Shown here: positions 6,318 through 63,176 of the stretch, in pieces | Layout: each line of letters begins with the position of its first letter | How positions within the stretch are numbered: position 1 is the stretch's first letter | Origin: Bacteroidales bacterium | GTDB taxonomy: Bacteria; Bacteroidota; Bacteroidia; Bacteroidales; UBA4417 | Direction: 5' to 3' | DNA: 64,000 bases | Assembly (NCBI GenBank): GCA_038237165.1 | Contig: JBBRYZ010000002.1 | Coordinates: forward strand, 9,395 to 73,394 | The notes under the pieces: generated by a model | What the model was told of the DNA's origin: nothing | Database searches by the model: none | The model's input: the letters and a program-made list of their open reading frames with translations, nothing else | Made by a program: the position numbers and the translations under genes

Positions 6318-6335
6318 CAAATCAATAAGTTTAAA

Positions 6336-7237: not shown

Positions 7238-7248
7238 TCTTTTCATAG

Positions 7249-7884: not shown

Positions 7885-7891
7885 TAATTTT

Positions 7892-7914: not shown

Positions 7915-8027
7915 CATTTGTATTGGATATTGCTGGCTTCTATTCAGAAAACAGAAGATTCGAAAGTATATTATTTTGATTATCGCAATCTAAATAGCTA
8001 ATTCCCAAATCGTTTGCATATTATCTT

Positions 8028-8588
8028 CTATGCCGAAAGATGTTCGTAAAGTATTTTCAATCCAATTAATATCAGCATTACTCCTCCAAGTATTTCCATT
8101 CTCCGGCCCATACGTGCACCGATTTTTTTACCAAAAAGCATCCCCAACATTGCAACTATATAAGTTACCGCCCCAATAATCCCCACCGAAACCAGTATTT
8201 TAAAATCCAGCAGTGCAAAACTAAATCCAACAATCAGCGCATCAATGCTGGTAGCTATTGCCATAGCAATCATCACTTTAATGTCCAGCGGATTAAATGA
8301 ACGGTTTTCGGGATCGGTTTTAAAACTTTCGTAAATCATTTTTCCGCCCAGCAAGGCAAGAATTCCAAATGCGATCCAGTGATCAAAATCCCGTGCATAA
8401 TTTTTTATTTCTGAACCTGCCAGCCAGCCAAGTACCGGCATGGCTGCCTGAAAAACAGCAAGAGTAACCGCAATTTTTGTGGCATTGAAAAAGTCAATCT
8501 TTTTTAATATCAGTCCGCTGGATACAGAAACAGCGAAAGTATCAAATGAAAGCCCGATTGCAATTAGGAAAATGGTAAGCAGTTGCAT
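8028..8588 (-). CDS. mntP: manganese efflux pump MntP
   Basis: MntP-type LSFDTFAVS motif and 6 TM helices. ATG 8588 is preferred because a -7 box lies at 8610-8617, inside the longer ORF. Confidence 0.85.
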   Translation of the reverse strand: MQLLTIFLIAIGLSFDTFAVSVSSGLILKKIDFFNATKIAVTLAVFQAAMPVLGWLAGSEIKNYARDFDHWIAFGILALLGGKMIYESFKTDPENRSFNPLDIKVMIAMAIATSIDALIVGFSFALLDFKILVSVGIIGAVTYIVAMLGMLFGKKIGARMGRRMEILGGVMLILIGLKILYEHLSA

Positions 8589-12102: not shown

Positions 12103-13356
12103 TCAAAAATAATATCCTACCGAAAAACTAAGTCTTGTATTAGTAACCGGAGTAGAATCATAAACTTTGAAATGTTCATCAGTCTTTCCATACGCAGCAG
12201 TGGTAAACTCACATTCTGCCGCAAGGGTTAATTTCCCGTTTATATAACTGATCATAGGTGCAAGGCGATAAACATATTCAATATCGGCATCACGCGCATA
12301 AACAGCACCGCTTATTGATTCCTTCGCACCGAATCCTTTGGTATAGCCGGCAAAAAAAGATCCCTGCCAGGTTTTGCCGGTTGTCTGGAAATTTATCCAA
12401 CCGGTAAGATAATTCAAAGGAATATATTCGTGCAGGTTGGTTAATACGTCAGTTTTACTCACCCCATAACCACCCATTACCAGGTGATCGTTAAGCCCCT
12501 GACCGTAAATCCACTGCATCCTTATTACAAGAGGCTTCATTTTAGCCGTTGCAAATGCAGTGTACGACAGGCAATTTACCGCTGCATCAGTAGCGTATAA
12601 GCTATCAGTGACCAGCCTTGGATGTATGTGTTTGTAATCAATGCCGGCACCAGCAAATAAATTTCCTGTAATATAATGAACCTGGGCATGTAGATTTGGT
12701 ATGGCACTGTTGCGTAAATAAACCGATGACGCTCCCGATGGACCGTTATTCATATAATCGCGTTGTGACAAAACAGCAAATACCGTATTAAATTTTCCTC
12801 TCGAATAATCGATCCTGATCTGGGGCTGCCTGCTGAAGGGGTGAAAAGGCGCGCCTGTATTGAGCGCCAGCACATTCGGAATCATTTCGGGAATAGTGAT
12901 AGGATGCCAATACTGACCGGCAGTAATTGCAGTATGAGTCCATTTCAACCTCAGGTAAGCATGACGAAGGCGGAAACTGTTATTTTCGGAATTTGAAGCA
13001 CCGGTAAAATCCCCTTCAATCAACGCTAAAACCTTTGCACCCAGCACATCCGGGCCTGTAGCTTTCATAGCTAATCTTGCCATCATGGCATACTGGTTAA
13101 AGCTGCCTTGGGCATTAATATCCTTACCGTTTTTATCGAAGCTCACTTTTTTGGGATAAAGTAATAAGTATCCTTCCCTGGCTTCGACCACCTGGCGGGT
13201 ATCATACATGCCTTCTGCTTTAACAAAACCGCTCCAGGTAAGCGAAGGTTTTTCAGAAGTTGAAACTGGTTTTGATTCTTGCGAAAAGACTTGATTAAGA
13301 CTAAAAAGCAGAAACACAAAGGAAAATGCAGCAATCCGGGTATTGATTGTATTCAT
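12103..13356 (-). CDS. putative outer-membrane beta-barrel porin
   Basis: 417 aa with a signal peptide, alternating beta-strand pattern and C-terminal ...SVGYYF. The family was not identified. Confidence 0.5.
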   Translation of the reverse strand: MNTINTRIAAFSFVFLLFSLNQVFSQESKPVSTSEKPSLTWSGFVKAEGMYDTRQVVEAREGYLLLYPKKVSFDKNGKDINAQGSFNQYAMMARLAMKATGPDVLGAKVLALIEGDFTGASNSENNSFRLRHAYLRLKWTHTAITAGQYWHPITIPEMIPNVLALNTGAPFHPFSRQPQIRIDYSRGKFNTVFAVLSQRDYMNNGPSGASSVYLRNSAIPNLHAQVHYITGNLFAGAGIDYKHIHPRLVTDSLYATDAAVNCLSYTAFATAKMKPLVIRMQWIYGQGLNDHLVMGGYGVSKTDVLTNLHEYIPLNYLTGWINFQTTGKTWQGSFFAGYTKGFGAKESISGAVYARDADIEYVYRLAPMISYINGKLTLAAECEFTTAAYGKTDEHFKVYDSTPVTNTRLSFSVGYYF

Positions 13357-13490: not shown

Positions 13491-13532
13491 GAAGACGGAA
13501 GACGGAAGACAGAAGACGGAAAACGGAAGCGA
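13491..13532. repeat. heptamer array (GAAGACG family, 6 units)
   Basis: gaagacg gaagacg gaagaca gaagacg gaaaacg gaagcga. Confidence 0.9.
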
Positions 13533-18241: not shown

Positions 18242-18381
18242 GAAGTCGGAAGACAGAAGTCGGAAGACAGAAGTCGGATTTGGGACGTCAGATTGAGGAA
18301 TGCAGATTGAAATTCTGAAACATGAAACTCTTCAAACATTTCAAGCTCTTCAAACATTTCAAACTCTTCAAACCTTTCAAA
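18242..18381. repeat. heptamer lattice (GAAGTCG/GAAGACA) passing into a 9-mer array (CTCTTCAAA/CATTTCAAA)
   Basis: 7-nt phase holds from 18242 to 18325. Six 9-mers run from 18328 to 18381. The array lies between convergent genes and reaches the stop of the 18377 gene. Confidence 0.9.
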
Positions 18382-19588
18382 CCCCCAATTCCTTCCCCAC
18401 AACATATGCCGTTGAGAATGCCGCCTGCAAATTATACCCGCCGGTATCACCATCGATATCAATTACTTCACCGGCGAAATATAGTCCGGGAACAAGTTTT
18501 GACTCCATGGTCTTTGAATTTACCTCATCCAGGCTCACTCCACCGGCTGTAACCATTGCAGTATTAAATCCACCAACTTTCTCAACCATAAATGGAAATT
18601 CACAAAGCGTTGACACGAGCTGGATTCGTTGATTTTTCTTGATATCAGCAAGCCTCGTTTCTGGTTCAACCTGAATTGATTGCAGAATAATTAATACCAA
18701 GCTCCTGGGCAGATCAAATTTCCTGAGGTAAGTCTGTATGGCTGTTTTACCTTCTTTTTCCGAAGCGCGGATCAGTTCATTTCTGAAATTATCCATGTTC
18801 AGATCGATAAAATTTATTTTTAACATATCACCACTCAGGATATGCCTGGAGAAATCAAGTATTCCCGGTCCGCTCAGTCCTTTGTGGGTAAAGCCGATAT
18901 CGCCGCGATGTTCGCTGATTTTTTTATTTCCACGGTACAAATAGATCATTTTGTCCTGCACCGAAACGCCCGAAATGGAAGCCATACCATAATCACGAAT
19001 AAAAACCGGGCTTAGCGATGGCTTTGGAGGCACAACGGAATGGCCCAATTGTTTTGCAAAATGATACCCGTCACCCGTTGAACCAGTTGCCGGATATGAC
19101 ATTCCACCGGTTGTAATTACAAGAAACCTGGCAGAAAATATAGCCGTATTGGTTTTCACTTCAAAACCATCCTCTGTCTTATTAATTTCGGCAACATGCT
19201 GATTACATGATATCTCGATATTATTTTTCGAACAAACATTTACCAAAACCTGCAATACATCTGCGGCTTTTTGTGATGCCGGAAATACTTTACCGTTTTT
19301 ATCAACCACTGTTTCCATTCCATGATCTTCGAAAAAACGGAGCAGGTCGGTGTTGGTAAAGCTGTGCAAAGCCGTTTTCAGAAACCGCTGGTTATGGCCA
19401 TAGTGACTAAAAAAATTACTTAACTTACAATCGTGTGTAAGGTTGCAGCGGCCAGTGCCTGAAATAAGGAGTTTTTTGCCGGGCGTGGCATTTTTCTCCA
19501 GCACTATAACCTTGCCGCCTTTGCAATGAATGGCTGCAAAAAGGCCGGCAGGTCCTGCCCCAATAATAAGAACATCAGCAGTTTTCAA
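18377..19588 (-). CDS. NAD(P)/FAD-dependent oxidoreductase, HI0933 (BaiN/RdsA) family
   Basis: 403 aa. N-terminal DVLIIGAGPAGLFAA dinucleotide-binding motif and HI0933-like length. Confidence 0.85.
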   Translation of the reverse strand: MKTADVLIIGAGPAGLFAAIHCKGGKVIVLEKNATPGKKLLISGTGRCNLTHDCKLSNFFSHYGHNQRFLKTALHSFTNTDLLRFFEDHGMETVVDKNGKVFPASQKAADVLQVLVNVCSKNNIEISCNQHVAEINKTEDGFEVKTNTAIFSARFLVITTGGMSYPATGSTGDGYHFAKQLGHSVVPPKPSLSPVFIRDYGMASISGVSVQDKMIYLYRGNKKISEHRGDIGFTHKGLSGPGILDFSRHILSGDMLKINFIDLNMDNFRNELIRASEKEGKTAIQTYLRKFDLPRSLVLIILQSIQVEPETRLADIKKNQRIQLVSTLCEFPFMVEKVGGFNTAMVTAGGVSLDEVNSKTMESKLVPGLYFAGEVIDIDGDTGGYNLQAAFSTAYVVGKELGV

Positions 19589-27562: not shown

Positions 27563-27625
27563 GGGTTAGGGATGGGGTTTAGGGTTTAGGGTTTGGCACT
27601 TGGTGCTTGGCACTTAGTGCTTTAC
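27563..27625. repeat. heptamer array (GTTTAGG changing to GCTTGGC), 9 units
   Basis: gggttag ggatggg gtttagg gtttagg gtttggc acttggt gcttggc acttagt gctttac. The array starts 11 nt upstream of the amylase ATG. Confidence 0.9.
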
Positions 27626-27853
27626 CTAATATATTGATGTATTTTTGGCAAAGTATTTAATCACACTAAGGCACAAAGTTCACTAAGCTGCTTTTTGTTA
27701 TCAATGGATTTGTGGAAAATCTTTTGGTTTCCGTACGGATAGCTATCGGGATGTCCAGGTTAGGATAATAGACCTTTGATCGAAGCTGAAGGACAGAGCT
27801 ATAGAGTTTAGAAGATTTAATCAAAATCTACATCTGAAAGGCATAGGAACAAG

Positions 27854-27916
27854 ACTCTTCTAACATTTCAAACTCTTCAATCCCATCAATCCCTTCAATC
27901 TCATCAATCCCTTCAA
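27854..27916. repeat. 9-mer array (ACTCTTCAA/TCCCTTCAA), 7 units
   Basis: The array ends 9 nt from the stop codon of the 27925 gene. Confidence 0.9.
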
Positions 27917-27924
27917 TCCTGAAT

Positions 27925-31286: not shown

Positions 31287-31913
31287 ATGAAAAAAGCAAT
31301 ACTGTTCCTTATCCTGATTATACCGGTTGTACTTTCAGCGCAATCATGGAAATCGAATCCCATCGCCATAAGCGTGTTCAACAATGCCACTATGTTGCCA
31401 CCGGCCTCTCTTACTGCGACATTTAACCAGCCCTTGCATCCTGGGTTAACCGCATCCTACGAATTCGGCTGGAAGGAAACGACAAACCACAAATGGTTTC
31501 AGAATGCCGGCATCAGCTATATGTACCACCAGTTTGTGTACCAGGCCATACTGCTTAATTCGCAGGCCGGATATCGTTGGAAACTAAGCAGGTTTTCAAT
31601 CGAAGGATACTTGCAGGCCGGATATATGCACGCTTTTCTGCTTACAGATCGGGCAGTATTGCAGTCGGATGGAACTTATAAAGCAAAAAAAGGTTTTGGG
31701 AAACCACAGTTTATTGCAGGTGCCGGTGCCGGATTAGGTTATAACTTTGGAAACGAATCAACGCTGCGGCGAATCTTTATCAATTATGACATCCGCCTTC
31801 AGATGCCTTTTGTAAAGAGTTATGTAACACTATTGCCAAATGGCGCCTTGTCCGTAGGAATGCAGTTTACGCTTAGCCGTGTGGCGGATAAGGGAGATTG
31901 CAGTCCGTATTAA
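31287..31913 (+). CDS. hypothetical secreted / outer-membrane beta-barrel-like protein
   Basis: Signal peptide MKKAILFLILIIPVVLSAQ and an aromatic-rich alternating pattern. No family was recognised. Confidence 0.4.
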   Translation: MKKAILFLILIIPVVLSAQSWKSNPIAISVFNNATMLPPASLTATFNQPLHPGLTASYEFGWKETTNHKWFQNAGISYMYHQFVYQAILLNSQAGYRWKLSRFSIEGYLQAGYMHAFLLTDRAVLQSDGTYKAKKGFGKPQFIAGAGAGLGYNFGNESTLRRIFINYDIRLQMPFVKSYVTLLPNGALSVGMQFTLSRVADKGDCSPY

Positions 31914-31962
31914 AAAGTGAAGAGTGAAAAGTGAAAAACGTAAAACGAAAAGTGAATAATAC
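31914..31962. repeat. heptamer array (AAAGTGA family), 7 units
   Basis: The array begins at the nucleotide immediately after the TAA stop at 31911-31913. Confidence 0.9.
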
Positions 31963-37800: not shown

Positions 37801-38838
37801 ATGGCTGATTTATCAACCCAATACCTCGGACTGAAATTAAAAAATCCGTTAATAGTAGGCAGTTCGGGAATGACAGGAACCATTGCCGGTGTAAAGCATG
37901 CCGCCGAAAATGGTGCAGGTGCCGTGGTTTTAAAATCCATTTTCGAAGAGCAGATCCTTCACGAAATGGAAAGCTATTTAAATGATTCTGAAAAAGATAA
38001 CGGCAATTCATTTAACAAAGGATATCAATCCGTTCTGAACGAAAGGGAATACGACCATGAAGAAGCCTACCTGTACCTGGCCGATCATGCCAAAAATCTG
38101 ACTCTGGAAAAATACCTGGCATTTGTTAAAGAGGCTAAAGAAGCCGTCGATATTCCTGTAATTGCAAGCATCAACTGCACCTCAGCCTACGACTGGCATT
38201 ACTTTGCCCGCAAGATCGAAGAAGCCGACGCCGATGCACTTGAGCTGAATGTGTATGTGCTTCCATCGAATACCATGAAGAATTCGGCTGAAAACGAAAA
38301 GATTTATTTTGATATAATCGAAGCCGTACTGAAACAGGTTAAAATACCGGTATCCTTAAAAATGGGGTATTATTTTTCTGGTCTGGCAACCACTGCCATT
38401 GAGCTTTCGAAAACCGGAATCAGCGGACTTGTTCTTTTCAACAGACCATTTCACCCGGATATTGACATTGATAAACTTGAAGTAAACTCCAAATATCTGC
38501 TGAGCGATCCTTCGGAATATTCACAGGTTCTGCGTTGGATCGCCATTTTATCAAGCAGGGTTGAGTGCCCGCTTGTAGCCACCACAGGAATTCATACCGC
38601 CGAATCAGCTATAAAACAATTACTTGCTGGAGCTACTGCTTTTGAAGTTGTTTCGGCTGTTTATAAAAATGGATACCCTGAAATATCAACTATTTTGAAA
38701 GGAATTGAGAAGTGGATGGACAGCAAAGGATATAAAACCATTGATAGTTTCAGGGGAAAAATGAATCAGCAAAATATCAGTAACCCGGCTGAGTTCGAAA
38801 GGGTTCAGTTTATGAAGTTGTATTCGGAGATTGTGTAG
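37801..38838 (+). CDS. dihydroorotate dehydrogenase-like flavoprotein (class-1 PyrD-like TIM barrel)
   Basis: LSTQYLGLKLKNPLIVGSSG at the N-terminus, and ALELNV and GATAFEVVSAV motifs typical of DHOD/DPD-type FMN barrels, with a C-terminal extension. Confidence 0.7.
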   Translation: MADLSTQYLGLKLKNPLIVGSSGMTGTIAGVKHAAENGAGAVVLKSIFEEQILHEMESYLNDSEKDNGNSFNKGYQSVLNEREYDHEEAYLYLADHAKNLTLEKYLAFVKEAKEAVDIPVIASINCTSAYDWHYFARKIEEADADALELNVYVLPSNTMKNSAENEKIYFDIIEAVLKQVKIPVSLKMGYYFSGLATTAIELSKTGISGLVLFNRPFHPDIDIDKLEVNSKYLLSDPSEYSQVLRWIAILSSRVECPLVATTGIHTAESAIKQLLAGATAFEVVSAVYKNGYPEISTILKGIEKWMDSKGYKTIDSFRGKMNQQNISNPAEFERVQFMKLYSEIV

Positions 38839-38945
38839 AATGCAGGATTTTCAACTGGAACGCGGATGACGCGGAAAGAACGGATAATCGTGGATTTATG
38901 ATGTCGGATGTTAGCTTGCAGACTAGGAATAGTATAACTTGAACC

Positions 38946-38982
38946 TAAAAAAAACCTGCTCTAAAGGCAGGTCTTTTTTTTT
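38946..38982. terminator. bidirectional rho-independent terminator
   Basis: A8-ACCTGC(7 nt)GCAGGT-C-T9, between the convergent DHOD-like gene and the last hdr/flx gene. Confidence 0.75.
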
Positions 38983-39820
38983 AATATTCGTCAGGTAACT
39001 CCTTTAGTTGTGTGCGGGTAAAAACGGGTCCGTCCTTGCAGACAAAAACTTTTCCTACATTGCAACGGCCACATTTGCCAAGGCCGCATTTCATACGGTT
39101 TTCAAGAGTGGTATAAACCTGGTCATCCGTAAAGCCATATTTTTCGAGTACAGGGAATGTAAATTTGATCATGACCGGAGGACCGCAAACAATGGCGATT
39201 GTGTTTTCACCTACCGGTTTCATCCGGTCGAGAATGGTTGGCACAAATCCGATCTCACCTTTCCAGTCGGGGGTTTCGCCGCCCGGGTCAACGGTTGTAA
39301 CCAGATTCACATCAGGGCGGGCTTTCCATTCGTCGAGTTCGTTTTTATAAACTAAATCGTTAACGGATTTGGCACCATAAAGTATCGAAATATCTTTAAA
39401 GTTTTCTCTTTGATCCAGACACGACCAGATGACGCTGCGCATGGGAGGCAATGCAATTCCGCCTGCAATAAAGAGAAGATTTTTACCTTTCCATTCATCG
39501 ATGGGGAAAATATTTCCGTAAGGTCCGCGGAAGCCAATGGTGTCGCCTTCGTTAAGACTGGCCAGTTCCGAAGTTACCCTTCCGGCTTCACGGAAAGTAC
39601 ATTCGATATATCCATTCCGGGTATGTGGCGAAGCAACGCAAAAGGTAACTTCTCCTTCGCCGAAAACGGAATACTCGCCGAATTGCCCGGTATGGAAAGA
39701 GAAATTATTTCCTTCCTCTTCGTTGGTAAATTTCAACCGGAATGTTTTGACCATGGGTGCCTCCTCAGTGATTTTCTCAATCTCCATCAGGTAAGGCTGG
39801 TAAATATTCTGTTGCTCCAT
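38981..39820 (-). CDS. flxA: FAD/NAD(P)-binding 2Fe-2S oxidoreductase subunit (FlxA / AsrB / HydG-like)
   Basis: 279 aa with a ferredoxin-reductase-type fold and C-terminal CGLGKCGRCNVG cluster motif. It is the last gene of the hdr/flx cluster. Confidence 0.7.
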   Translation of the reverse strand: MEQQNIYQPYLMEIEKITEEAPMVKTFRLKFTNEEEGNNFSFHTGQFGEYSVFGEGEVTFCVASPHTRNGYIECTFREAGRVTSELASLNEGDTIGFRGPYGNIFPIDEWKGKNLLFIAGGIALPPMRSVIWSCLDQRENFKDISILYGAKSVNDLVYKNELDEWKARPDVNLVTTVDPGGETPDWKGEIGFVPTILDRMKPVGENTIAIVCGPPVMIKFTFPVLEKYGFTDDQVYTTLENRMKCGLGKCGRCNVGKVFVCKDGPVFTRTQLKELPDEY

Positions 39821-39850
39821 GTTGTGTGTATGCGGGGTTATTTATATTAG

Positions 39851-39960
39851 TATTTAGTACTTGGTGCCTGGTACTTGGTGTCTGGTGCCTGGTGTCTTGT
39901 GCTTGGTGCTTGGTGCTTGGTACTATTCACTATTCACTATGCACTATGCGCTATGCGCTA
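39851..39960. repeat. 16-unit phase-locked heptamer array inside the hdr/flx operon
   Basis: tatttag tacttgg tgcctgg tacttgg tgtctgg tgcctgg tgtcttg tgcttgg x3 tactatt cactatt cactatg x2 cgctatg cgcta. The last unit contains the flxB-like stop codon. Confidence 0.95.
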
Positions 39961-40995
39961 CGCACTTAAAATTACCTGACTACCTATTTCACTCAAATGC
40001 TCCTTAATATTCATATCCACCGGGCAGGCTCTTGAACATCGTCCGCAGCCTTCGCAACCTACAACATGAAGTTGTTCTGGCATGTAAGCAAACTTATGCA
40101 TGATGCGTTGGCGCCAGCGTTGGCTTTGAACTTCCCTTGGATTGTGACCGGAGGTATGTAACGTGAACAGCGAAAATCCACATGAATCCCAAAGACGGAG
40201 ACGTACTCCTTTTTTGGTGTTCTGCTCATCCTGAAAATCGAAACAGGCACAGGTAGGGCAAACAAAAGCACATGCCCCGCAACCAATGCATCGGAGAGAT
40301 TGCTCAAGCCATAAAGCTGCATTATTAAAGGAAGCGGTTGTATTTTTAACTACCGAATTCACATCAAATACAACTTTTACATCGGCAAGAAATTTACTCT
40401 TATCAATGTCGCTTTTTGCATCGGTGAGAAGATCTGTGAAAACAGTTGCCAGCTTAATGCCTTTTTCGGTAAGGATTTCAACAAGAATTTCATCTTTGCT
40501 GATTCCTGTAAACTGAAGGTCGCTGCCCGCCGTATTGCCCGGTCCGCCGCCCACTGAAGTGCAGAAACAATATTCATCAGCCGTAGGGCAGGAAAAAGAA
40601 ATAATAGTGGTCTTCTCCTTTTTCTTCAAATATAGTTCATCCTTGGGAGTATCACCAAAAATGGCATCAAGCGATTTAAAACCGGAAGCGTCACAGGGTC
40701 TTACTCCGAAAAGAATCGTTTCCTTACAAGTTTCCGGATCAACAGGTGTTTGTTTTACATCTGATTTGCCGAAGGTAAAATCAAGCACTTTTTCCACTTT
40801 AGGAAAAGCTGCTTTCTTAGCCGACTGCGTTGACAATAATGCATCAAGTGCAACATCTTCGAGCGATTCAACCAATTCTATCTCCACGACCTTATCTTTG
40901 CGGACAGGCGCCAGCACAGGATACCCCTGCGAGCGAAACCTTTCAATAAGTTTTGGCAGATCGGTGTATTTCAGTATTTTAAGTTCTTTCTCCAT
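39958..40995 (-). CDS. flxB: 4Fe-4S dicluster protein (FlxB / AsrA / HydB-like)
   Basis: 345 aa. CIGCGACAFVCPTC and CEGCGRCSRACP ferredoxin motifs. Confidence 0.65.
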   Translation of the reverse strand: MEKELKILKYTDLPKLIERFRSQGYPVLAPVRKDKVVEIELVESLEDVALDALLSTQSAKKAAFPKVEKVLDFTFGKSDVKQTPVDPETCKETILFGVRPCDASGFKSLDAIFGDTPKDELYLKKKEKTTIISFSCPTADEYCFCTSVGGGPGNTAGSDLQFTGISKDEILVEILTEKGIKLATVFTDLLTDAKSDIDKSKFLADVKVVFDVNSVVKNTTASFNNAALWLEQSLRCIGCGACAFVCPTCACFDFQDEQNTKKGVRLRLWDSCGFSLFTLHTSGHNPREVQSQRWRQRIMHKFAYMPEQLHVVGCEGCGRCSRACPVDMNIKEHLSEIGSQVILSA

Positions 40996-40998
40996 GGG

Positions 40999-41802
40999 TC
41001 AGATAATGAAATTTTCCTTGTCATCGGGTTTATAAGTTGACAGGGCATAGACGGCATCGGCTTTCATTCCTGCGGTAGCGCCAAAAGTTTCCTGAATGGG
41101 CTGAATCAACTGATAGGTAAGCAGGTTAAGCGGAATATCCATTGGGCAGGCATTGGCACATTCGCCGCAGTTTACACAACGTCCGGCCAGATGCATGGCG
41201 CGCATCAGGTGGTAATCGAGGTTACCGAGTTCGTGGCTGGCAACAGGAATCCACTGCGGCTGATTTACATCCGTAGTACAGCGGTGGCAATAGCACATCG
41301 GGCAGGCAGCACGGCAGGCGTAACACTTAATGCATTTTTCAAATTCCTTGTTCCAAAAAGCCCAACGCTCCTTGACACTCATTGCCTCAAGCAGGGTAAT
41401 CATTTCCTGTTCTTCCGATTTTATTCCAACATCGGTAGTTTCAAGATAGGCTTCGATGGAATGAAAATCAGTGAATTCAGTAAATGAATTATCTGCATTT
41501 GGAAACAAAGCTAAAACCTCTCCATCCTTAATCTGGAATTCAGATGCAAGCTGCATCATACTCCTCAAAGCAGATACATTGGTCAGAATACCAAGTTTAC
41601 CAAGCTTTTTTACTTCATGTTTTAGAAGATAACCAGCCAGATTTTGAGTGCAAGATGCGTCGAAGATCAGTTTACCGGCCTGTTCGGCTGTCCTTATAAA
41701 CGTAGTCCTGATGCGGTCAGCGGAGCCTTTTTCGTAACCGATAAATACATCTATCGTTTTATCGCTTAGTAGCTGCGTTACTTTTTTAATAAGTTCACTC
41801 AT
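40999..41802 (-). CDS. flxC: 4Fe-4S dicluster protein (FlxC-like)
   Basis: CIKCYACRAACPMC and CVNCGECANACP motifs. Start MSELIKK at 41802 gives an ATGAGTGA overlap with the mvhD stop. Confidence 0.6.
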   Translation of the reverse strand: MSELIKKVTQLLSDKTIDVFIGYEKGSADRIRTTFIRTAEQAGKLIFDASCTQNLAGYLLKHEVKKLGKLGILTNVSALRSMMQLASEFQIKDGEVLALFPNADNSFTEFTDFHSIEAYLETTDVGIKSEEQEMITLLEAMSVKERWAFWNKEFEKCIKCYACRAACPMCYCHRCTTDVNQPQWIPVASHELGNLDYHLMRAMHLAGRCVNCGECANACPMDIPLNLLTYQLIQPIQETFGATAGMKADAVYALSTYKPDDKENFII

Positions 41803-42253
41803 GGGTTGCGCCCTCCTCGTTAAATAAAGTGGAAACGGCAATTTTCTTATAACTATCGTTCGGACCGAATTCCTTAATCTTTTTTACTGTGTTATTCACA
41901 ACATCGGCCCACTTGAAACCTTCGGCTGCAGATACCCAGCTGAATTGTATGCGATCGGTTTCTATCCCTGCAAAATTGAGCAGATTGCGGAAAACGATCC
42001 ACCTCCTGCGTGCATGAAAATTGCCGGTACTGTAATGGCAATCATTTGGGTGACACCCCGAAACTATAATTCCGTCGGCTCCGTTTTCAAATGCTTTCAT
42101 CAGTATCATAAAGTCGATACGGCCGGTACATGGGAAACGGATTATTTTCACGTTGGCCGAATACTTGATGCGGCTCGTACCCGTGAGGTCGGCACCGGCA
42201 TAGGTGCACCAGTTACATACAAATGCCACAATTTTTGGTTCAAATTCCTGCAT
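41795..42253 (-). CDS. mvhD: MvhD/FlpD-type hydrogenase iron-sulfur (delta) subunit (FlxD-like)
   Basis: 152 aa. IVAFVCNWCTYAGADLTG...RFPCTGR...SGCHPNDCHY is the signature of the MvhD family. Confidence 0.85.
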   Translation of the reverse strand: MQEFEPKIVAFVCNWCTYAGADLTGTSRIKYSANVKIIRFPCTGRIDFMILMKAFENGADGIIVSGCHPNDCHYSTGNFHARRRWIVFRNLLNFAGIETDRIQFSWVSAAEGFKWADVVNNTVKKIKEFGPNDSYKKIAVSTLFNEEGATHE

Positions 42254-42265
42254 TCTATTCTGCTA

Positions 42266-44266
42266 TTAATCGTTTAATAAAGCCATTACTTCTGTGTAAA
42301 CCTGCTGGTTCGAGTATCCATGTATGTCGATTGCCTTGGTACGGCATAGTGCGACGCATGTTCCGCAGCCCTGGCAAAGTCCTTCGTTCACCCTGGCCAG
42401 AGTTTTGATTACTTCACCGTTTCTGTTTTTGATTTCTTCGCGCTCGATGGCCTGATATGGGCAGACACTCTGGCAAAGGAAACAGCCAACACATTGCGAA
42501 TATACGGGCGGAGCCTGGCGGTTTACCACAGCTACCAGCGGATCGCGGGTTAACAAATCATTGCTGAAAAGAGCAGCAACTTTTACGGCAGCGCCTGACG
42601 CGGCAGCCACCGATTCTGGAATATCTTTCGGAGCCTGACAGGCGCCCGCAAGGAAAATACCGGCAGTATTGGTTTCGACGGGTTTCAGTTTGGGATGTGC
42701 TTCGGCAAAGAATTTATACGAGTCGTACGAAACGTGAACAGTCTGAGCCAGTTCTTCGGCTCCTTTATTTGCTACCCCGGCAGTCGCCAGAACAACCATA
42801 TCGGCTTCAATTTCAATCGGAATACCACCCATCAGCGTATCAGCGCCTTTTACGATCAGTTTGCCATTTTTTTCGTAGATGGTCGAAACACGGCCACGCA
42901 CATAATGTGTTCCGTCCTCAACAATGGTGCGGCGCACAAATTCCTCGTACATCTTCCCTCCTGCCCTGATGTCCATATAAAAAACATAGGGAGTGCCATC
43001 ATGAACCTTGTGTTTGTAAAGCATAGCATGCTTGGCGGTGTACATGCAGCAGATTTTTGAGCAATATTCAATTCCCTTGGCGGGATCGCGTGAACCGGCA
43101 CAGGCAACGAAAACAATCTTTTTAGGAATCTGTCCGTCCGACGGCCTGCGGATTTCACCCTGAGTCGGACCTGATGCAGATGCAAGGCGTTCGAACTGAA
43201 GACCGTCGATTACATCTTTGTATTTCCCATAACCATATTCGGGGAAATAGTCAGGTTTGAGAACATCAAAACCGGTGGCAAGCACAATTGCGCCGACAGC
43301 TACCTGAACAATTTCATCTTCCTGATCGAAACGAATGGCTTTTGTCGGGCAAACGATTTCGCAAACCTTACATTTGCCTTTAATATAATAGGTGCAATTT
43401 TCTCTATCGATAACCGGTTTGTTTGGAACAGCCTGCGGAAAAGGTACATAAATAGCAGGACGGAAACCTAAGCCGCGTTCAAATTCATTGGGAATTTTCT
43501 TTTGAGGACATTTGGTTGTACAAAGTCCACAGCCCGTACAATCGTGCTCGTCAATGCTTTTTGATTTCTTGCGGATTATTACTGTGAAGTTGCCGATGAA
43601 CCCATCCACACTTTCCACTTCGGAATAAGTATGAAGTGTAATATTGGGATGCTGGGCAATTTCAACCATCCTCGGTGTGAGAATACACTGTGAGCAGTCA
43701 AGCGTTGGAAAAGTTTCGGACAACTGCGACATATGACCACCAATGGAAGGTTGTTTTTCGACCATGATCACTTTGTGTCCGCAATTGGCAATATCCAGAG
43801 CAGCCTGTATGCCGGCAATTCCACCACCAATCACTAAGGCGGTTTTTGTTACCGGAACTTTGATAGAGTTTAGCGCTTTATTTTTCTTGACTTTCTCAAC
43901 CATTACCCTTACCAGAGCCTCAGCTTTTTCAGTGGTAAGATCATCTTTGGGATGAACCCATGAGCAATGCTCGCGGATATTCGACATCTCGCAAAGGAAA
44001 GGATTCAAACCCGCTTCGGCGCAGGCTTTACGGAAAGTCGGCTCATGCATACGAGGCGAACACGCAGCTACCACAACACCATCCAGTTTATGCTCCTTGA
44101 TTGCATCTTTCAGCATTGTCTGACCGGGGTCGGAACACATATATTTATAATCGGTGGCAAATTCAACACCTTTGAGTTCACCAGTGATTTTGGCAACTTT
44201 TTCGCAATTTACCGTGGCTGAAATATTTTCACCACAGTGACAAACAAAAACTCCTATCCGCGACAT
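42266..44266 (-). CDS. hdrA: heterodisulfide reductase subunit A-like flavoprotein
   Basis: 666 aa. FAD motif VIGGGIAGIQAA, several CxxCxxCxxxCP clusters, HdrA-typical length. Confidence 0.9.
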   Translation of the reverse strand: MSRIGVFVCHCGENISATVNCEKVAKITGELKGVEFATDYKYMCSDPGQTMLKDAIKEHKLDGVVVAACSPRMHEPTFRKACAEAGLNPFLCEMSNIREHCSWVHPKDDLTTEKAEALVRVMVEKVKKNKALNSIKVPVTKTALVIGGGIAGIQAALDIANCGHKVIMVEKQPSIGGHMSQLSETFPTLDCSQCILTPRMVEIAQHPNITLHTYSEVESVDGFIGNFTVIIRKKSKSIDEHDCTGCGLCTTKCPQKKIPNEFERGLGFRPAIYVPFPQAVPNKPVIDRENCTYYIKGKCKVCEIVCPTKAIRFDQEDEIVQVAVGAIVLATGFDVLKPDYFPEYGYGKYKDVIDGLQFERLASASGPTQGEIRRPSDGQIPKKIVFVACAGSRDPAKGIEYCSKICCMYTAKHAMLYKHKVHDGTPYVFYMDIRAGGKMYEEFVRRTIVEDGTHYVRGRVSTIYEKNGKLIVKGADTLMGGIPIEIEADMVVLATAGVANKGAEELAQTVHVSYDSYKFFAEAHPKLKPVETNTAGIFLAGACQAPKDIPESVAAASGAAVKVAALFSNDLLTRDPLVAVVNRQAPPVYSQCVGCFLCQSVCPYQAIEREEIKNRNGEVIKTLARVNEGLCQGCGTCVALCRTKAIDIHGYSNQQVYTEVMALLND

Positions 44267-44268
44267 GT

Positions 44269-45186
44269 TTAAGCCTCCGTTTTTTGAGTGGTTACTACTT
44301 TCCTGGCAACTTCTGCAACCGGAATTTCCTTTATGGGACGATCCGGCAGATTTACTTCTGTCATATGCCTGTTAATTCCAAGTGATTTAGCATCAAGCCC
44401 GACGGCAAGTCCCAATACCTGTGAAATATACAAAACCGGAATATCAATTTTCTCGCTGAGGAATTTATTGATTTCCGGGCGACGCATATCCAGGTTCGAA
44501 TGACACATAGGGCAAGCCACCACTACTACTTCGGCTTCCCGGTCGTTTGCATCTTTCATTATATTTCCTGACAAACGGGCAACAGTATCGGTACGTGAAA
44601 CCGACATTCCGGCTCCGCAGCATTCCGTTTTAAAAGCCCAGTCAATCGCATTTCCACCGGCTTTCCTCACTAGTACATCCATGCTTTGCGGATCTTCAAC
44701 CCTATCGAATTTAAGGATGGAATGCGGACGAACCAGAAGGCAACCGTAATAACAAGCTGTTTTGTAATCAAAAGGCTTTACCACTTTTTCTTCCAGCCTG
44801 TCAGTTATATATTTGTCGATAAACTGAATAATATTAAGGATATGTGTGGTTCCCTCATATTTCATATCGATAATTGAAGCGACTTTTGAAGATAAAGAAG
44901 GATCTTCTTCAAGTTCATGCTTAACTAGCGAAAGCCGGTTGTAACAGGCAGCACAAGGAACAACGATATCCGTGATGCCTTCCCTTTCGGCCAAAGCCAT
45001 AATCCGGGCCGGCAAGCTGAGCGACAATTCCTTGTTAAGGTTATGAGCCGCAGTGGCTCCGCAGCAGTTCCAGTCAGGAATTTCGACAAGCTCTATATCA
45101 AATACTTTTGCCAGGGCTGTAACCGATTCCTGGTATTCCTGAGCGCCACCTTTCATGGAGCAACCCGGATAAAATCCTACTTTCAT
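44269..45186 (-). CDS. hdrB: heterodisulfide reductase subunit B-like (two CCG domains)
   Basis: 305 aa. Two CCG motifs (WNCCGA, TECCGAG) plus PCAACY and CPMCH. Confidence 0.9.
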   Translation of the reverse strand: MKVGFYPGCSMKGGAQEYQESVTALAKVFDIELVEIPDWNCCGATAAHNLNKELSLSLPARIMALAEREGITDIVVPCAACYNRLSLVKHELEEDPSLSSKVASIIDMKYEGTTHILNIIQFIDKYITDRLEEKVVKPFDYKTACYYGCLLVRPHSILKFDRVEDPQSMDVLVRKAGGNAIDWAFKTECCGAGMSVSRTDTVARLSGNIMKDANDREAEVVVVACPMCHSNLDMRRPEINKFLSEKIDIPVLYISQVLGLAVGLDAKSLGINRHMTEVNLPDRPIKEIPVAEVARKVVTTQKTEA

Positions 45187-45764
45187 TGTTTACCCTCCTC
45201 TTTCTTAATCTGAACTTTATTAAAAATAGCAGCTACCTTTTTCCTTCCCTTTATAATTTCGGGAATGGGATTCAGCTTTCCCTTGAAAAACATTTTGGGG
45301 GCAATAGCTACATCCTGCATCATGGCTCCTGTTCGCATTTTATAATCAACGATCAGTCCCATTTCATAAAGTCTGCCCGTATAATTGATCGAATCGAGAA
45401 ATGATTTATGAAATGATATTATCTTTTTGGCCAGTGGATTTGTCTTTTTGGCTTTCACCGATTTCTGCCTCAGGTTATCCATGATGGTGGGAATATCAAT
45501 TTCCATCGGGCAACGGGTAAGACACATCTCACAACTCACACATAGCCATATGGACATGGATTTCAATAGCTTTTCATAATGAACAGGTTCGTCAGTCTGT
45601 AGCATCCGCATCACAAGGCTGGGCGGATAATCCATTTCGGTTGCTACCGGACAGCCAGCCGAACATTTGCCGCACTGGTAACATTTATTAATGATCACGC
45701 CGGTTTCCATCTGCATTTCGCCGCTGAGGGATAAAGGGTGACTTATTTCGAGTGAAGCGGACAT
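45183..45764 (-). CDS. hdrC: heterodisulfide reductase subunit C-like
   Basis: 193 aa. CYQCGKCSAGCP and CVSCEMCLTRCP motifs. A 4-nt ATGA overlap with hdrB. Confidence 0.85.
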   Translation of the reverse strand: MSASLEISHPLSLSGEMQMETGVIINKCYQCGKCSAGCPVATEMDYPPSLVMRMLQTDEPVHYEKLLKSMSIWLCVSCEMCLTRCPMEIDIPTIMDNLRQKSVKAKKTNPLAKKIISFHKSFLDSINYTGRLYEMGLIVDYKMRTGAMMQDVAIAPKMFFKGKLNPIPEIIKGRKKVAAIFNKVQIKKEEGKQ

Positions 45765-46336
45765 AAAACTAGATTTCGCTTAGGTTAAACATATTTTCCA
45801 GAATACTTTTTCTTTAATAATAGCATTTATCTCACATCAATCATGATAGTTACGATCATAAATCAGCCAGCCCATTCGAGCCGGAAATCAAAATCGGAAA
45901 GTTACCTGAAGAAAGAAAAGATGATGACACTGTTGTTCAGAATTAAGATTCTTCTGTTATTCAATTCACAGGCAAAATTAATATATTGAACAAACCAAAT
46001 ATGATTTTTTGCAATTTATAATGCTTTTAAATAGAGCACTTTCATGGGTTCCGAAGGTATCTCCATTCAACATATCGCCTGCTTTTATATCCAAAGCAGA
46101 AAAATGCCAATCAGGGGTTATGTCTTTTTTATATTTCAACAAAGCCCTGAAATGGCTATTTCTTTCCAACTTTTGATTCAAATGGAAAAGTATTTTTCAT
46201 AAAACCAGAAATCCAATGTTAACAAAAAAAAATGCATTCCGACATTTTTAATCCTCTGAATATTTACTCAAGCAACAAATTCAATCGAAAGATAAACTCC
46301 GTAAAGTTATTATTGTATAAAGTGCGGGTAGTTTAT

Positions 46337-46344
46337 TACTTTTG
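46337..46344 (+). promoter_or_regulatory. -7 box (TACTTTTG) for tatA
   Basis: TAnnTTTG 27 nt upstream of ATG 46371. Confidence 0.5.
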
Positions 46345-46370
46345 TGGGGTAAAATTTAAAACTCCTGATT

Positions 46371-46787
46371 ATGTCCGGATTACCGGTACTCTTATTTTTT
46401 GACATAAGCGGTGGCGAACTGCTTATTATAATGGTGGTTGTATTCCTGGTTTTCGGACCTGAGAAAATGCCTGAAATGGCCCGCAAAGCCGGACGTCTGA
46501 TGAACCAGATGAAAAAAGCTTCAAGCGATCTGACCAACGAATTCAAGAAAGAAACTTCGGTTATTCAGAACGAAATCAACGCTGCTCATGCCAAGGTTGA
46601 TGAACAGATCGATAGTGTGCGCCGTGAAGTTAACCGCACAAAAGCACAGGTTGCTAATGATATGAATGTTGAAATCAAACCTGTAACAGAAGCTGACCCA
46701 GTAACTTCAACCGAAGGATCTTTAGCAGATAACCAGGTTCATACTGTGCCTTCAAAAACTGAGACCAATACCTCGAAAAAGGAATAA
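46371..46787 (+). CDS. tatA: twin-arginine translocase TatA/TatB/TatE-family protein
   Basis: N-terminal TM helix followed by FGPEKMPEMARKAG and an amphipathic helix. 138 aa. Confidence 0.8.
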   Translation: MSGLPVLLFFDISGGELLIIMVVVFLVFGPEKMPEMARKAGRLMNQMKKASSDLTNEFKKETSVIQNEINAAHAKVDEQIDSVRREVNRTKAQVANDMNVEIKPVTEADPVTSTEGSLADNQVHTVPSKTETNTSKKE

Positions 46788-49522: not shown

Positions 49523-49694
49523 GCAGTTAATGGTTAATGGAAAATGGAAAATGGTTAACATTAATTTATTCAGGAATTCAAAAAACATTTAACATTAAAC
49601 ACAAAACATTTAACACTTAACAGCACTCCATGCACTAAGCACCACACACCACTCAAAGCACTTTTACCTCTAATTTTAAAACTCAATCAACCCC
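49523..49694. repeat. heptamer lattice filling the whole spacer from stop to start (about 24 units)
   Basis: gcagtta atggtta atggaaa atggaaa atggtta ... then 11 consecutive units beginning with C (caaaaaa catttaa cattaaa cacaaaa catttaa cacttaa cagcact ccatgca ctaagca ccacaca ccactca). Confidence 0.9.
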
Positions 49695-52127: not shown

Positions 52128-52239
52128 ACCTGAAAGGTATTTCGTCAGAGCAACTTTACAAGCTGATCTATGCTTTATCAAACAGATTGAAAATTTGATA
52201 ATTGCAATATCAGGTCTGCAAACCAATCCTCTTTTCACG

Positions 52240-52247
52240 TACCTTTG
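52240..52247 (+). promoter_or_regulatory. -7 box (TACCTTTG) for prfA
   Basis: TAnnTTTG 24 nt upstream of ATG 52271. It lies inside the longer ORF-track start. Confidence 0.5.
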
Positions 52248-52270
52248 CACCCGCAAAATCAATTACCCAT

Positions 52271-53341
52271 ATGTTAGATAAGCTTGCAGCCATAAACGAA
52301 CGTTACCTTACTATTGCTACTCAAATCAATGATCCTGACGTAATGCAGGATATGAAAGCATATATAAAACTCAGCAAAGACTATAAAGAACTTCAGCCTA
52401 TTATCGAAGGTTATAAGAAATATAAAGTGATTGTGGAAGGCATCGAAGCCTGCCATTCCATACTTGATGAAGAAAAGGACGAGGAAATGCGTTCCTTTGC
52501 CAGAGAGGAAATGGAGTCGCTTACCGACCAGCGCGACAAACTGGAAGAAGAAATCCGCCTTATGCTCATTCCTTCCGATCCGCAGGATGTAAAAAATGCT
52601 GTGGTCGAAATCAGGGCAGGCTCAGGTGGAGACGAAGCCAGTATTTTTGCAGGCGACCTTTACCGTATGTACATACGCTATTGCGAACGTAAAAACTGGA
52701 AGATAGAGCCTGTTAGTATGACCGAAGGCACTATGGGCGGTTTTAAGGAAGTTATTTTCGAAGTAAAAGGCGACGGAGTTTATGGTTTATTGAAATATGA
52801 ATCGGGAGTGCATCGCGTACAGCGTGTTCCCGACACCGAAACTCAGGGCCGGATTCATACTTCGGCAGCATCTGTTGCGGTTTTGCCCGAAGCTGATGAA
52901 TTTGAAGTAGACTTGAAACCCAGCGATATCCGTAAAGACACGTATTGTTCATCCGGTCCCGGTGGACAAAGTGTAAATACAACTTACTCAGCAGTGCGCC
53001 TTACCCATGCTCCTACCGGAATCGTGGTTGCCATTCAGGATGAAAAATCGCAGATGAAGAATTTCGAAAAAGCCATGACGATTTTACGGGCACGAATTTT
53101 CGAACGGGAATACCAGAAATATCTGGATGAGATTTCGAAAAAACGTAAAACCATGGTTTCCTCCGGCGACCGGTCTGCAAAAATCCGCACCTATAATTAC
53201 CCGCAAAGCCGCGTTACTGATCATCGCATCAATTATACCATGTATAATCTACCAGTCTTTCTGGATGGTGAAATACAGGATTTTATTGATAATCTGCAAC
53301 TGGCTGAAAATGCGGAAAGACTGAAAGAAGCGACGGAATAA
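52271..53341 (+). CDS. prfA: peptide chain release factor 1
   Basis: GGQ motif (SGPGGQSVN) and an RF1-type RVQRVPDTETQGR region. Start MLDKLAAINERY. Confidence 0.9.
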   Translation: MLDKLAAINERYLTIATQINDPDVMQDMKAYIKLSKDYKELQPIIEGYKKYKVIVEGIEACHSILDEEKDEEMRSFAREEMESLTDQRDKLEEEIRLMLIPSDPQDVKNAVVEIRAGSGGDEASIFAGDLYRMYIRYCERKNWKIEPVSMTEGTMGGFKEVIFEVKGDGVYGLLKYESGVHRVQRVPDTETQGRIHTSAASVAVLPEADEFEVDLKPSDIRKDTYCSSGPGGQSVNTTYSAVRLTHAPTGIVVAIQDEKSQMKNFEKAMTILRARIFEREYQKYLDEISKKRKTMVSSGDRSAKIRTYNYPQSRVTDHRINYTMYNLPVFLDGEIQDFIDNLQLAENAERLKEATE

Positions 53342-53588
53342 ATTCGGATTTGTCCACAAATGTTCACAAATAAAACACAAATAGGCACAAATAATTCTTG
53401 CTTATTATTTATCAATTATTCTTCAGGCTGGTCAGAATTTTATTGATAATCTGCAACTGGCTGAAAATGCGGAAAGACTGAAAGAAGCGACGGAATAAAT
53501 TCGGATTTGTCCACAAATGTTCACAAATAAAACACAAATAGGCACAAATAATTCTTGCTTATTATTCATCAATTATTCTTCAGGCTGG
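53276..53588. repeat. tandem duplication, 2 x 157 bp, covering the last 66 nt of prfA (stop codon included) plus 91 nt downstream
   Basis: 53276-53432 and 53433-53588 are collinear with 2 mismatches (53279 vs 53436, and tatttatc vs tattcatc). Confidence 0.95.
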
Positions 53589-53660
53589 AAAGAATTGGCA
53601 CAATAATTTTGTGTTAATTTGTGAAACATTTGAGTTATTTGTGGAAGATACATTTCCACG

Positions 53661-57137: not shown

Positions 57138-57270
57138 TGGTCATACGATAGTCATACGATAGCCATTCATTGGTCATACGATAGTCTTACAATGGTCAGT
57201 CGATAGTTATGCGATGGTCATTCAATCTCTTCAAACTCTTCAAAACCTTCAAAACCTACAAAACCATAAA
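57138..57270. repeat. 11-mer array (TGGTCATACGA/TAGTCATACGA, 8 units) followed by a 9-mer array (ACTCTTCAA, 5 units)
   Basis: 11-nt phase from 57138 to 57225, with a 22-bp super-period. 9-nt phase from 57226 to 57270. Confidence 0.9.
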
Positions 57271-57300
57271 ACTGTCACACTGAGCGTAGTCGAAGTGCCA

Positions 57301-57399
57301 AAATCTGTAAACATTTCAAACCCTTCTAACTCCTCAAACCCTTCAATCTCTTCAAACATTTCAAACTCGTCAAACATTTCAGACTCATCAAACCATTAT
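57301..57399. repeat. 9-mer array (AACATTTCA/AACCCTTCA), 11 units
   Basis: It is separated from the preceding 9-mer array by a 30-bp insert, ACTGTCACACTGAGCGTAGTCGAAGTGCC, which breaks the phase. Confidence 0.9.
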
Positions 57400-59414: not shown

Positions 59415-59575
59415 AAAGACGGAAGTCCGAAGACGGAAGTTCGAAGACGAAAGGTAGTAGTAGAACATAGAATTCGGAAGACAGAAGCAGGTAGTCGAAG
59501 TTATGAATATGTAATTAGCACTTCCGACTCCGGTCTTCGGACTTCCTACCTTTTCACACCAATTACAATTTAAAA
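59415..59575. repeat. heptamer lattice (GAAGACG/GAAGTCC family) with an internal inverted segment
   Basis: 7-nt phase begins at the nucleotide after the htpG stop. The 14-bp perfect inverted repeat 59421-59434 / 59533-59546 can form a long hairpin. Confidence 0.9.
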
Positions 59576-61807: not shown

Positions 61808-61995
61808 GAGAAATAGTTAATGGAAAATAGTTGACAGAAAATAGTCATACAATGGTCATGCGATAGTCATACGATTGTCGAAAGATGGTCATAGATTGTC
61901 ATGCGATGGTTAAATAATAGTCATTCGATGGTCGTAAAGTGGTTTCATCTAACTTTTCAAAATCATGAGACTCTTCAAACATTTCAAACTCTAAG
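61808..61995. repeat. 14/11-mer array (AAAATAGTTAATGG, then TGGTCATGCGA/TAGTCATACGA) followed by 9-mers
   Basis: About 10 units in approximately 11-nt phase (one 10-nt unit) from 61842 to 61950. GACTCTTCA AACATTTCA from 61969. The unit families are the same as at 57138-57399 and (in reverse complement) 5379-5433. Confidence 0.9.
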
Positions 61996-63084: not shown

Positions 63085-63176
63085 AGGGTTTGAAGAGTTT
63101 CAGGGTTTCAGAGTTTCAGTTGCTAATTTTAAGTAAAACTTTTCAAACCTTCGGACGTGGATTGTTCAAACCCTTC
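63083..63176. repeat. inverted 8/9-mer arrays (GGGTTTGAA... / ...TTCAAACCC)
   Basis: The 12-bp perfect inverted repeat 63083-63094 / 63165-63176. The left arm includes the TGA stop of the Gfo gene. Confidence 0.8.

Follow-up and report, generated by a model that had tools for sequence, protein, structure and literature searches.

A seven-gene cluster at positions 38981-45764, on the minus strand, of a 64-kb stretch of DNA from a Bacteroidales bacterium (the whole stretch is termed "the window" below) is an intact member of the known and widespread Flx-Hdr family in its standard gene order, and it discloses neither a novel mechanism nor a candidate partner protein. The seven genes probably form one transcription unit, the products of which, judged from their sequences, would assemble into a soluble complex of the Flx(Flox)-Hdr type. 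This complex would work reversibly as a flavin-based bifurcating NAD(P)H:ferredoxin plus disulfide oxidoreductase, an assignment that we consider well ahead of even chance. Homologs of every one of the seven proteins recur in identical order in about 60 independent loci, far more than chance would produce. Flx-Hdr complexes rank among the predicted electron-bifurcating systems that are most widespread in anaerobes, and they are important for gut colonisation by Bilophila.

Gene content and cofactor motifs

The open reading frame (ORF) listing contains seven complete and almost gapless ORFs running in one direction, as a preliminary description of this DNA had noted, and the genes are transcribed in the contiguous order hdrC-hdrB-hdrA-flxD-flxC-flxB-flxA. 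Two junctions are overlaps, both of which were found in the sequence as previously described: the ATG of hdrB overlaps the stop codon of hdrC (ATGA), and the ATG of flxC overlaps the stop codon of flxD, which is also named mvhD (ATGAGTGA). The genes hdrA and mvhD are separate ORFs with a gap of 12 nucleotides between them. The start of flxC was set at the ATG at position 41802, since its homologs measure 266-267 amino acids, while the mechanical ORF list gives a TTG at position 41841.

Pfam and NCBIfam domain models were run on all seven proteins, and this hidden Markov model check assigned every one of them to the subunit proposed earlier; likewise, every motif reported for HdrC, HdrB, HdrA and MvhD is present in the translations. 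HdrC (45183-45764; 193 amino acids) has a 4Fe-4S dicluster domain with the two motifs C28xxCxxCxxxCP and C75xxCxxCxxxCP (cysteines 28, 31, 34, 38 and 75, 78, 81, 85), is predicted to carry two [4Fe-4S] clusters, and matches the NCBIfam model HdrC best (59 bits, under the cutoff). The catalytic subunit HdrB (44269-45186; 305 amino acids) harbours two complete CCG motifs, C9...C41C42...C78xxC81 and C145/C149...C189C190...C225xxC228, ten cysteines in total, which are predicted to hold two non-cubane [4Fe-4S] clusters. Both stretches are recognized by the Pfam CCG model (E 2e-23), and the protein matches methanogen HdrB structures over its full length (105-137 bits).

HdrA (42266-44266; 666 amino acids, 32 cysteines) is a full-length flavoprotein of the bifurcating type with a GGGIAG motif for flavin adenine dinucleotide (FAD) and with ferredoxin domains. 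Its residues 3-664 align with residues 5-650 of 5odc_A from the Mvh-Hdr complex (692 bits), and the FAD motif is kept, as is every cysteine group of its three ferredoxin domains (N-terminal, inserted and C-terminal). Among the NCBIfam models, HdrA2 scores 780.7 bits, under its cutoff of 1100, and the HdrA models score 566-579 bits. Between hdrA and flxC lies the gene for the FlpD-family [2Fe-2S] connector protein FlxD/MvhD (41795-42253; 152 amino acids; Pfam FlpD, E 1e-49), which features the motifs CNWC, CTGR and CHPNDCH. This protein aligns with MvhD of the Fdh-Hdr complex (7bkb_F, 155 bits) and with 5odc_D (147 bits), and its top NCBIfam model is the fused HdrA2 (160 bits).

The remaining three genes encode the Flx input module, in which FlxB and FlxC are the two proteins described earlier as bearing two [4Fe-4S] motifs each. 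FlxA (38981-39820; 279 amino acids) combines FAD- and NAD(P)H-binding domains with a C-terminal [2Fe-2S] site (Pfam FAD_binding_6, NAD_binding_1 and DHODB_Fe-S_bind) and resembles PyrK, AsrB and sulfhydrogenase gamma; its top structural match is the gamma subunit of Pyrococcus sulfhydrogenase I (9nez_C, E 6e-58). The motif CGLGKCGRC, in which the protein was said to end, is indeed present, but at residues 245-253, and hence near rather than at the C-terminus. FlxB (39958-40995; 345 amino acids) is an AsrA- and sulfhydrogenase-beta-like iron-sulfur protein (Pfam Fer4_22, E 8e-32; NCBIfam HydB 154 bits and AsrA 146 bits, each under the cutoff) with the sulfhydrogenase I beta subunit as top structural match (9nez_B, E 1e-37). 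Its 16 cysteines make up two classical 4Fe-4S motifs and an additional cysteine cluster. In sulfhydrogenase I, the gamma and beta subunits constitute the NADPH-FAD-FeS module for electron input.

FlxC (40999-41802; 267 amino acids from the ATG) has a 4Fe-4S dicluster domain in Pfam and NCBIfam and is the most Flx-specific subunit. A search with the single FlxC sequence aligns only the C-terminal Fe-S region of FdhB from Fdh-Hdr complexes (E 1e-21); when a profile of 26 homologs is used instead, FdhB 7bkb_E is matched over two segments, FlxC 8-120 with FdhB 31-146 and FlxC 138-253 with FdhB 269-382. FlxC is therefore a shortened FdhB-like protein that lacks about 120 central residues. FdhB is presumably the subunit that passes electrons to MvhD. 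Since FlxC is FdhB-like, and since FdhB and MvhD occur together in the solved complexes 7bkb, 8rvu and 9t1s, FlxC may by analogy be the adaptor joining FlxAB to FlxD-HdrA. At 50% identity and E<=1e-3, 1109 clusters related to FlxC exist among 1.84 billion representatives, and thus the family is widespread. A resemblance between the N-terminal domains of FlxC and FlxB was also considered and dismissed, the profile-profile match being limited to the Fe-S domain.

Given these cofactors, and in line with the published Flx-Hdr model, NAD(P)H would be oxidised at the FAD of FlxA, the predicted entry site for pyridine nucleotides, with either NADH or NADPH as possible donor. The electrons would then pass through the [2Fe-2S] cluster of FlxA and the clusters of FlxB, which together would work as a gamma/beta diaphorase-like module, through the two [4Fe-4S] clusters of FlxC, and by way of the [2Fe-2S] cluster of FlxD/MvhD to the bifurcating FAD of HdrA. 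From there, one electron would be driven uphill, via the ferredoxin domains of HdrA, to ferredoxin or flavodoxin, and the other would run downhill via HdrC to the two non-cubane clusters of HdrB, which would reduce a disulfide or some other acceptor of high potential. In the reverse mode, reduced ferredoxin and thiol would regenerate NAD(P)H.

Distribution, neighbourhood and competing explanations

A genome scan seeded with HdrA yielded at least 595 relatives, of which the best 80 loci (numbered with the prefix L below) were analysed by reading the gene order with tblastn and all seven window proteins. The order hdrC-B-A-flxD-C-B-A, with the same orientation, occurs in about 60 of the 80, i.e., in essentially every locus long enough to tell. 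These loci belong to Bacteroidota, Ignavibacteria, Chlorobi, Geobacter and Trichlorobacter (62-63% HdrA identity), Scalindua and other Planctomycetota, Acidobacteriota, Actinomycetota, Clostridia and, among the archaea, one Bathyarchaeia metagenome-assembled genome (MAG). Among species-representative genomes, the closest of the best 80 loci come from Bacteroidales MAGs, their HdrA being 94-95% identical to that of the window, and members of the database clusters are named "[Bacteroidota bacterium]", in agreement with the Bacteroidota context assumed at the outset. Carriers in this phylum comprise complete MAG chromosomes as well as the isolates Bacteroides oleiciplenus YIT 12058 and Segatella paludivivens DSM 17968. 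Intact copies are thus common in Bacteroidales and extend to cultured isolates, both gut and plant-associated ones, and the two named species are tractable hosts for the question of the electron acceptor.

The preliminary description had held that the gene order differs from that of Desulfovibrio, a claim that finds no support here. The designation "FlxABCD-HdrABC" denotes the complex and does not describe the order of its genes. The term hdrCBA-flxDCBA is reportedly used in the abstract of Ramos et al. 2015. A study on Bilophila gives the Desulfovibrionaceae cluster that very name and treats the D. vulgaris cluster as its equivalent (PMC12125255). The gene order of the window is therefore ordinary, as judged from its recurrence across many phyla and from the naming in the literature.

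HdrA proteins of Krumholzibacteriota, Spirochaetota and "Hyphomicrobiales" MAGs are 76-79% identical to that of the window, as close as many from Bacteroidota, and the GC content of the operon is 43-47% compared to 37-42% in the adjoining flanks (window 38001-46000). Either feature could reflect horizontal mobility of the module or mis-binning of MAGs. The operon tolerates insertions between hdrA and mvhD: this site is occupied by a gene for a PF05635 "23S rRNA intervening-sequence protein" in L004 (12067-12435; Pfam), by a 122-amino acid ORF in L087 (14488-14856) and by a 604-amino acid ORF in L013 (2861-4675). In Trichlorobacter (L051; insertions at 9587-10000 and 12195-12629), hdrB and hdrA are separated by an ORF that resembles a response regulator, and hdrA and mvhD by one that resembles a transposase, both identified by eye. 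Finally, hdrCBA occurs without flx genes in L014 and, within the stretch covered, in L016.

The neighbourhood of the operon does not extend the module. The Pfam assignments of about 40 other window genes point to housekeeping and envelope functions, including a carbamate-kinase-like protein, EamA, a MiaB-like protein, Lgt, an M13 peptidase, a LytS/LytTR pair, MFS transporters, an alpha-amylase, Fib_succ_major lipoproteins, an OmpA/TPR protein, RF-1, PyrF and HtpG. No dsr, apr, qmo or hydrogenase gene was found by Pfam among these 64-kb window genes, and a scan for the C-terminal DsrC/TusE motif in the window and the 80 loci returned only spurious matches in non-coding frames; the earlier statement that the window holds no dsrC or other sulfur-respiration gene is thus correct. 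All-against-all clustering of the flanking ORFs of the 80 loci revealed no conserved neighbour beyond the seven genes in any lineage, and the seven genes behave as a self-contained module. Given that the cluster has no partner gene conserved beside it in any lineage, it is uninformative that dsrC does not occur within the 64 kb. The window also lacks nuo genes, and no adh gene adjoins its cluster.

The gene next to flxA codes for a dihydroorotate dehydrogenase (DHOD)-like flavoprotein (37801-38838, plus strand; NCBIfam PRK07565, 405 bits, above the cutoff) and is convergent with flxA, from which it is separated by a shared hairpin that is probably a bidirectional terminator. It was considered as the missing partner and rejected as a case of local synteny. 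In a metagenome scan, the gene adjoins flx-hdr only in relatives of >=69% identity, where it is always convergent; in addition, it lies co-directionally and directly 5' of hdrC in the Rikenellaceae-like genomes L005 and L008. Homologs of <=55% identity adjoin genes for rubrerythrin, peroxiredoxin and ferritin or a PyrK-like gene. In the close relatives L087, L089 and L093 the DHOD-like gene follows a nuo operon, L093 showing no flx-hdr match within the stretch covered.

Several points weigh against the assignment as a bifurcating Flx-Hdr complex that reduces a disulfide. The NCBIfam matches of the seven subunits all remain under the curated equivalog cutoffs, and therefore no subunit counts as an orthologue of a named enzyme. 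The top NCBIfam model of HdrB is that of SdhE, a quinone-site CCG protein of methylmenaquinol:fumarate reductase, with 174 bits compared to 161 bits for HdrB. A candidate for a thiol/disulfide partner was found neither in the window nor in the flanks of the 80 related loci. To our knowledge, there are no biochemical data for any Bacteroidota member, and we know of no demonstration of Flx-Hdr bifurcation with purified enzyme, even from Desulfovibrio. The preliminary description regarded the disulfide substrate as open; this is a real question, but one that is already present in the literature and is not sharpened by the window.

The slightly higher score of HdrB with the SdhE model would suit a version of the complex in which HdrBC reduces a quinone, or a low-molecular-weight thiol feeding a fumarate or enoate reductase, instead of a DsrC-type disulfide, and which would be tied to the respiratory chain. 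Genome context provides further hints of this kind: nuoA is divergent from hdrC in L007, L009 and L010 (about 1260-8368), hdrCBA runs directly into nuoA-N in L016 (4270-12769), nuo lies beyond the DHOD-like gene in the close relatives L087 (95-9371) and L089, an NDH-2 gene follows flxA in L008 (15171-16463), and the clusters of Pseudoclostridium and of a Riftia symbiont lie with fumarate-reductase or reductive tricarboxylic acid cycle (rTCA) genes. Yet, the SdhE score falls far below its cutoff of 500 and is barely over that of HdrB, the operon encodes no membrane-anchor or quinone-binding subunit (transmembrane segments not predicted), nuo adjacency is missing from the window and from most loci, and the adjacent nuo operons fall into two distinct types, a pattern that accidental synteny would explain no less well than a functional link. 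An acceptor of this sort is accordingly rather unlikely, and the observations give weak hints that the acceptor is no disulfide or that the complex is linked to the respiratory chain. Since hdr(-flx) genes are found repeatedly and in non-identical arrangements beside nuo or NDH-2 genes in Bacteroidota, including the flx-less hdrCBA-nuoA-N of L016, the complex of Bacteroidales, which apparently lack DsrC, might serve another high-potential acceptor and be wired to the respiratory chain via a complex-I-like Nuo or the quinone pool, a reading to which we give quite little credence. For example, NADH oxidation would drive electrons uphill to ferredoxin or flavodoxin and then into Nuo.

A question of direction rather than of machinery is whether the complex physiologically operates by confurcation, such that reduced ferredoxin from pyruvate:ferredoxin oxidoreductase and a thiol would jointly reduce NAD(P)+, thus providing a redox valve in fermentation. 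Bacteroidales are established fermenters that do not respire sulfate, and D. vulgaris is reported to run the complex backwards in pyruvate fermentation (PMC12125255). The direction is not readable from sequence, however, and confurcation, which we deem possible though somewhat doubtful, is a variant of the preferred Flx-Hdr explanation and not another machine. Two further readings replace the machine itself. A hydrogenase-linked Mvh-Hdr complex (H2:heterodisulfide/ferredoxin) with its hydrogenase genes elsewhere would account for MvhD and the methanogen-like HdrABC, and the names of database clusters include "F420-non-reducing hydrogenase iron-sulfur subunit". Hydrogenase genes adjacent outside the window had been named as an observation that would speak for such a complex. 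No large or small hydrogenase subunit, i.e., no MvhA/MvhG of the [NiFe] type, occurs among the about 40 other window genes or as a conserved neighbour in the 80 loci, and in essentially every complete locus mvhD is followed by flxCBA, a complete NAD(P)H-oxidising module, rendering the hydrogenase-linked form highly improbable. The chances of a sulfur-oxidising sHdr-like or a Qmo-like system are close to negligible. Domains of the HdrA, HdrB and HdrC type are common to all of these systems, but the short sHdr HdrA structure (6tjr_A) matches only residues 325-566 (139 bits), there is a single hdrB and a single hdrC and no lipoate-binding protein, the QmoC model reaches 54.9 bits compared to a cutoff of 300, HdrC comprises just 193 amino acids, and the window contains no apr genes.

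Non-coding elements and repeats

The 606-bp intergenic region between hdrC and tatA contains a near-invariant block of about 88 nucleotides (45955-46042, minus strand), which is a candidate promoter or operator. In an alignment with four relatives, the block is near-invariant at positions 329-416 of the first sequence, and the remaining spacer is poorly conserved. The block holds a Bacteroidetes-type -7-like TAnnTTTG element found by regular-expression search (TAATTTTG, 45980-45973), 216 nucleotides 5' of the hdrC ATG; the distance from this element to an upstream TTTG is below the textbook 19-21 nucleotides. A sigma-70 scan gave no signal above shuffled sequence, an Rfam scan of positions 38700-46500 produced nothing near gathering scores, and no convincing small ORF was seen upstream of hdrC in the window. 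Bacteroides loci feature an ORF of 141-144 amino acids upstream of hdrC, which belongs to no Pfam family and the N-terminus of which looks signal-peptide-like by eye.

At the distal end of the operon, a GC-rich hairpin (ACCTGC...GCAGGT; 38954-38972) with an A-run and a T-run on its sides (minus strand AAAAAAAAGACCTGCCTTTAGAGCAGGTTTTTTTT) lies where flxA and the DHOD-like gene converge, in the gap between their stop codons. In the terminator scan, only this hairpin stands above shuffled sequences, and it likely is a bidirectional intrinsic terminator that closes the operon.

Bacteroidota are thought to make little use of Shine-Dalgarno sequences. An AGGAGG-type Shine-Dalgarno core is found in the 3' end of mvhD before flxC (window 41803-41822) in 19 of 23 Bacteroidota loci, and the flxC ATG of the window is preceded by GAGGAGG. 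The same scan detected no such core before hdrC (0 of 25); AGGAGG-like cores also precede hdrB and hdrA in the window.

The spacer between flxB and flxA (39821-39957, 137 nucleotides) is a non-genic segment inside the operon that consists of heptamer tandem repeats. Tandem Repeats Finder (TRF) resolves an array of period 7 with 8.6 copies (39862-39921) and another of period 7 with 6.4 copies (39922-39966), the latter reaching 9 nucleotides into the 3' end of flxB. The relatives L083, L087, L086, L004 and L003 have 7-nucleotide arrays with other repeat units at the same spot, and in more distant Bacteroidales the junction ranges from an overlap to 13 nucleotides, i.e., there is no spacer or a tiny one. 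Across the window, short tandem repeats (periods of 7, 8, 9, 11, 14 and 18 nucleotides) are unusually abundant in intergenic regions (e.g., 2219-2247, 2636-2672, 4014-4153, 5378-5440, 13491-13529, 18242-18382, 27575-27919, 31913-31956, 49584-49622, 57140-57394, 59416-59453, 61811-61933 and 63085-63119). These repeats resemble the heptameric STRR repeats of cyanobacteria and are a genome-wide trait rather than specific for the operon. Longer units are repeated at 2241-2624 (93 bp, 4.1 copies, intergenic) and at 53275-53596 (157 bp, 2.1 copies), the latter overlapping the 3' end of the RF-1 gene (52202-53341).

Relation to known Flx-Hdr and Hdr complexes

The closest counterpart is FlxABCD-HdrABC of D. 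vulgaris Hildenborough and Bilophila wadsworthia, to which the window cluster corresponds in its seven subunit types, predicted cofactors, cluster designation and the proposed logic of bifurcation between NADH, ferredoxin and a disulfide; the likeness to the D. vulgaris system rests on subunit types, motifs and cluster designation and, at the level of sequence, only on an indirect link through Geobacter-type loci that the literature assigns to Flx-Hdr. In D. vulgaris and Bilophila, genetic work connects the cluster with DsrC as well as with NADH/ethanol metabolism (PMC12125255; Ferreira 2023 via PMC10504309), and DsrC is given as the acceptor in D. vulgaris (Ferreira 2023, cited in PMC10504309). 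In contrast to D. vulgaris, the host described here belongs to the Bacteroidales and has no genes for sulfate or sulfite respiration in view and no adjoining adh gene. Therefore, the DsrC acceptor is probably not available in this host.

The same cluster, likewise without dissimilatory sulfate reduction, is known as Flox-Hdr from syntrophs, Geobacter and Pseudoclostridium. The complex of syntrophs has already been described as uncharacterised in the absence of DsrC (PMC7382037, PMC5017805), and so has that of Geobacter, the G. sulfurreducens cluster being assigned to FlxABCD-HdrABC (PMC4703632). The same description is on record for Pseudoclostridium, in which the cluster lies within a succinate operon (PMC7282089), and for the Riftia symbiont, in which it is accompanied by rTCA and tfrAB genes (PMC11636981). 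The window cluster differs from these examples in phylum and ecology, and while some of them have informative neighbours, the window has none. Among the papers searched, none deals with Flx-Hdr in Bacteroidales.

HdrA2B2C2 of Methanosarcina acetivorans (PMC5296606) is related insofar as HdrA2 is the top NCBIfam model for both HdrA and MvhD. In the window, however, HdrA and MvhD are unfused, both scores are below the HdrA2 cutoff given above, and an F420 donor is not expected in Bacteroidales. The methanogen complexes MvhAGD-HdrABC and FdhAB-MvhD-HdrABC (5odc, 7bkb, 8rvu, 9sfi) share the HdrA, HdrB, HdrC and MvhD core, which is homologous over its full length, and FdhB of the Fdh-Hdr complexes is homologous to FlxC, apart from the middle segment noted above. 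The electron input in the window cluster would be FlxAB with NAD(P)H, in place of hydrogenase or formate dehydrogenase, and the methanogen substrate CoM-S-S-CoB does not exist in bacteria. Finally, FlxB and FlxA are homologous to the NAD(P)H-FAD-FeS module of Pyrococcus furiosus sulfhydrogenase I beta/gamma (9nez) and of AsrAB. Unlike sulfhydrogenase I and Asr, the window cluster comprises neither hydrogenase alpha/delta subunits nor the siroheme subunit AsrC, and the module would instead feed MvhD-HdrA. The proposed equivalence of FlxC with a shortened FdhB-like adaptor and of FlxAB with the sulfhydrogenase beta/gamma module may aid modelling.

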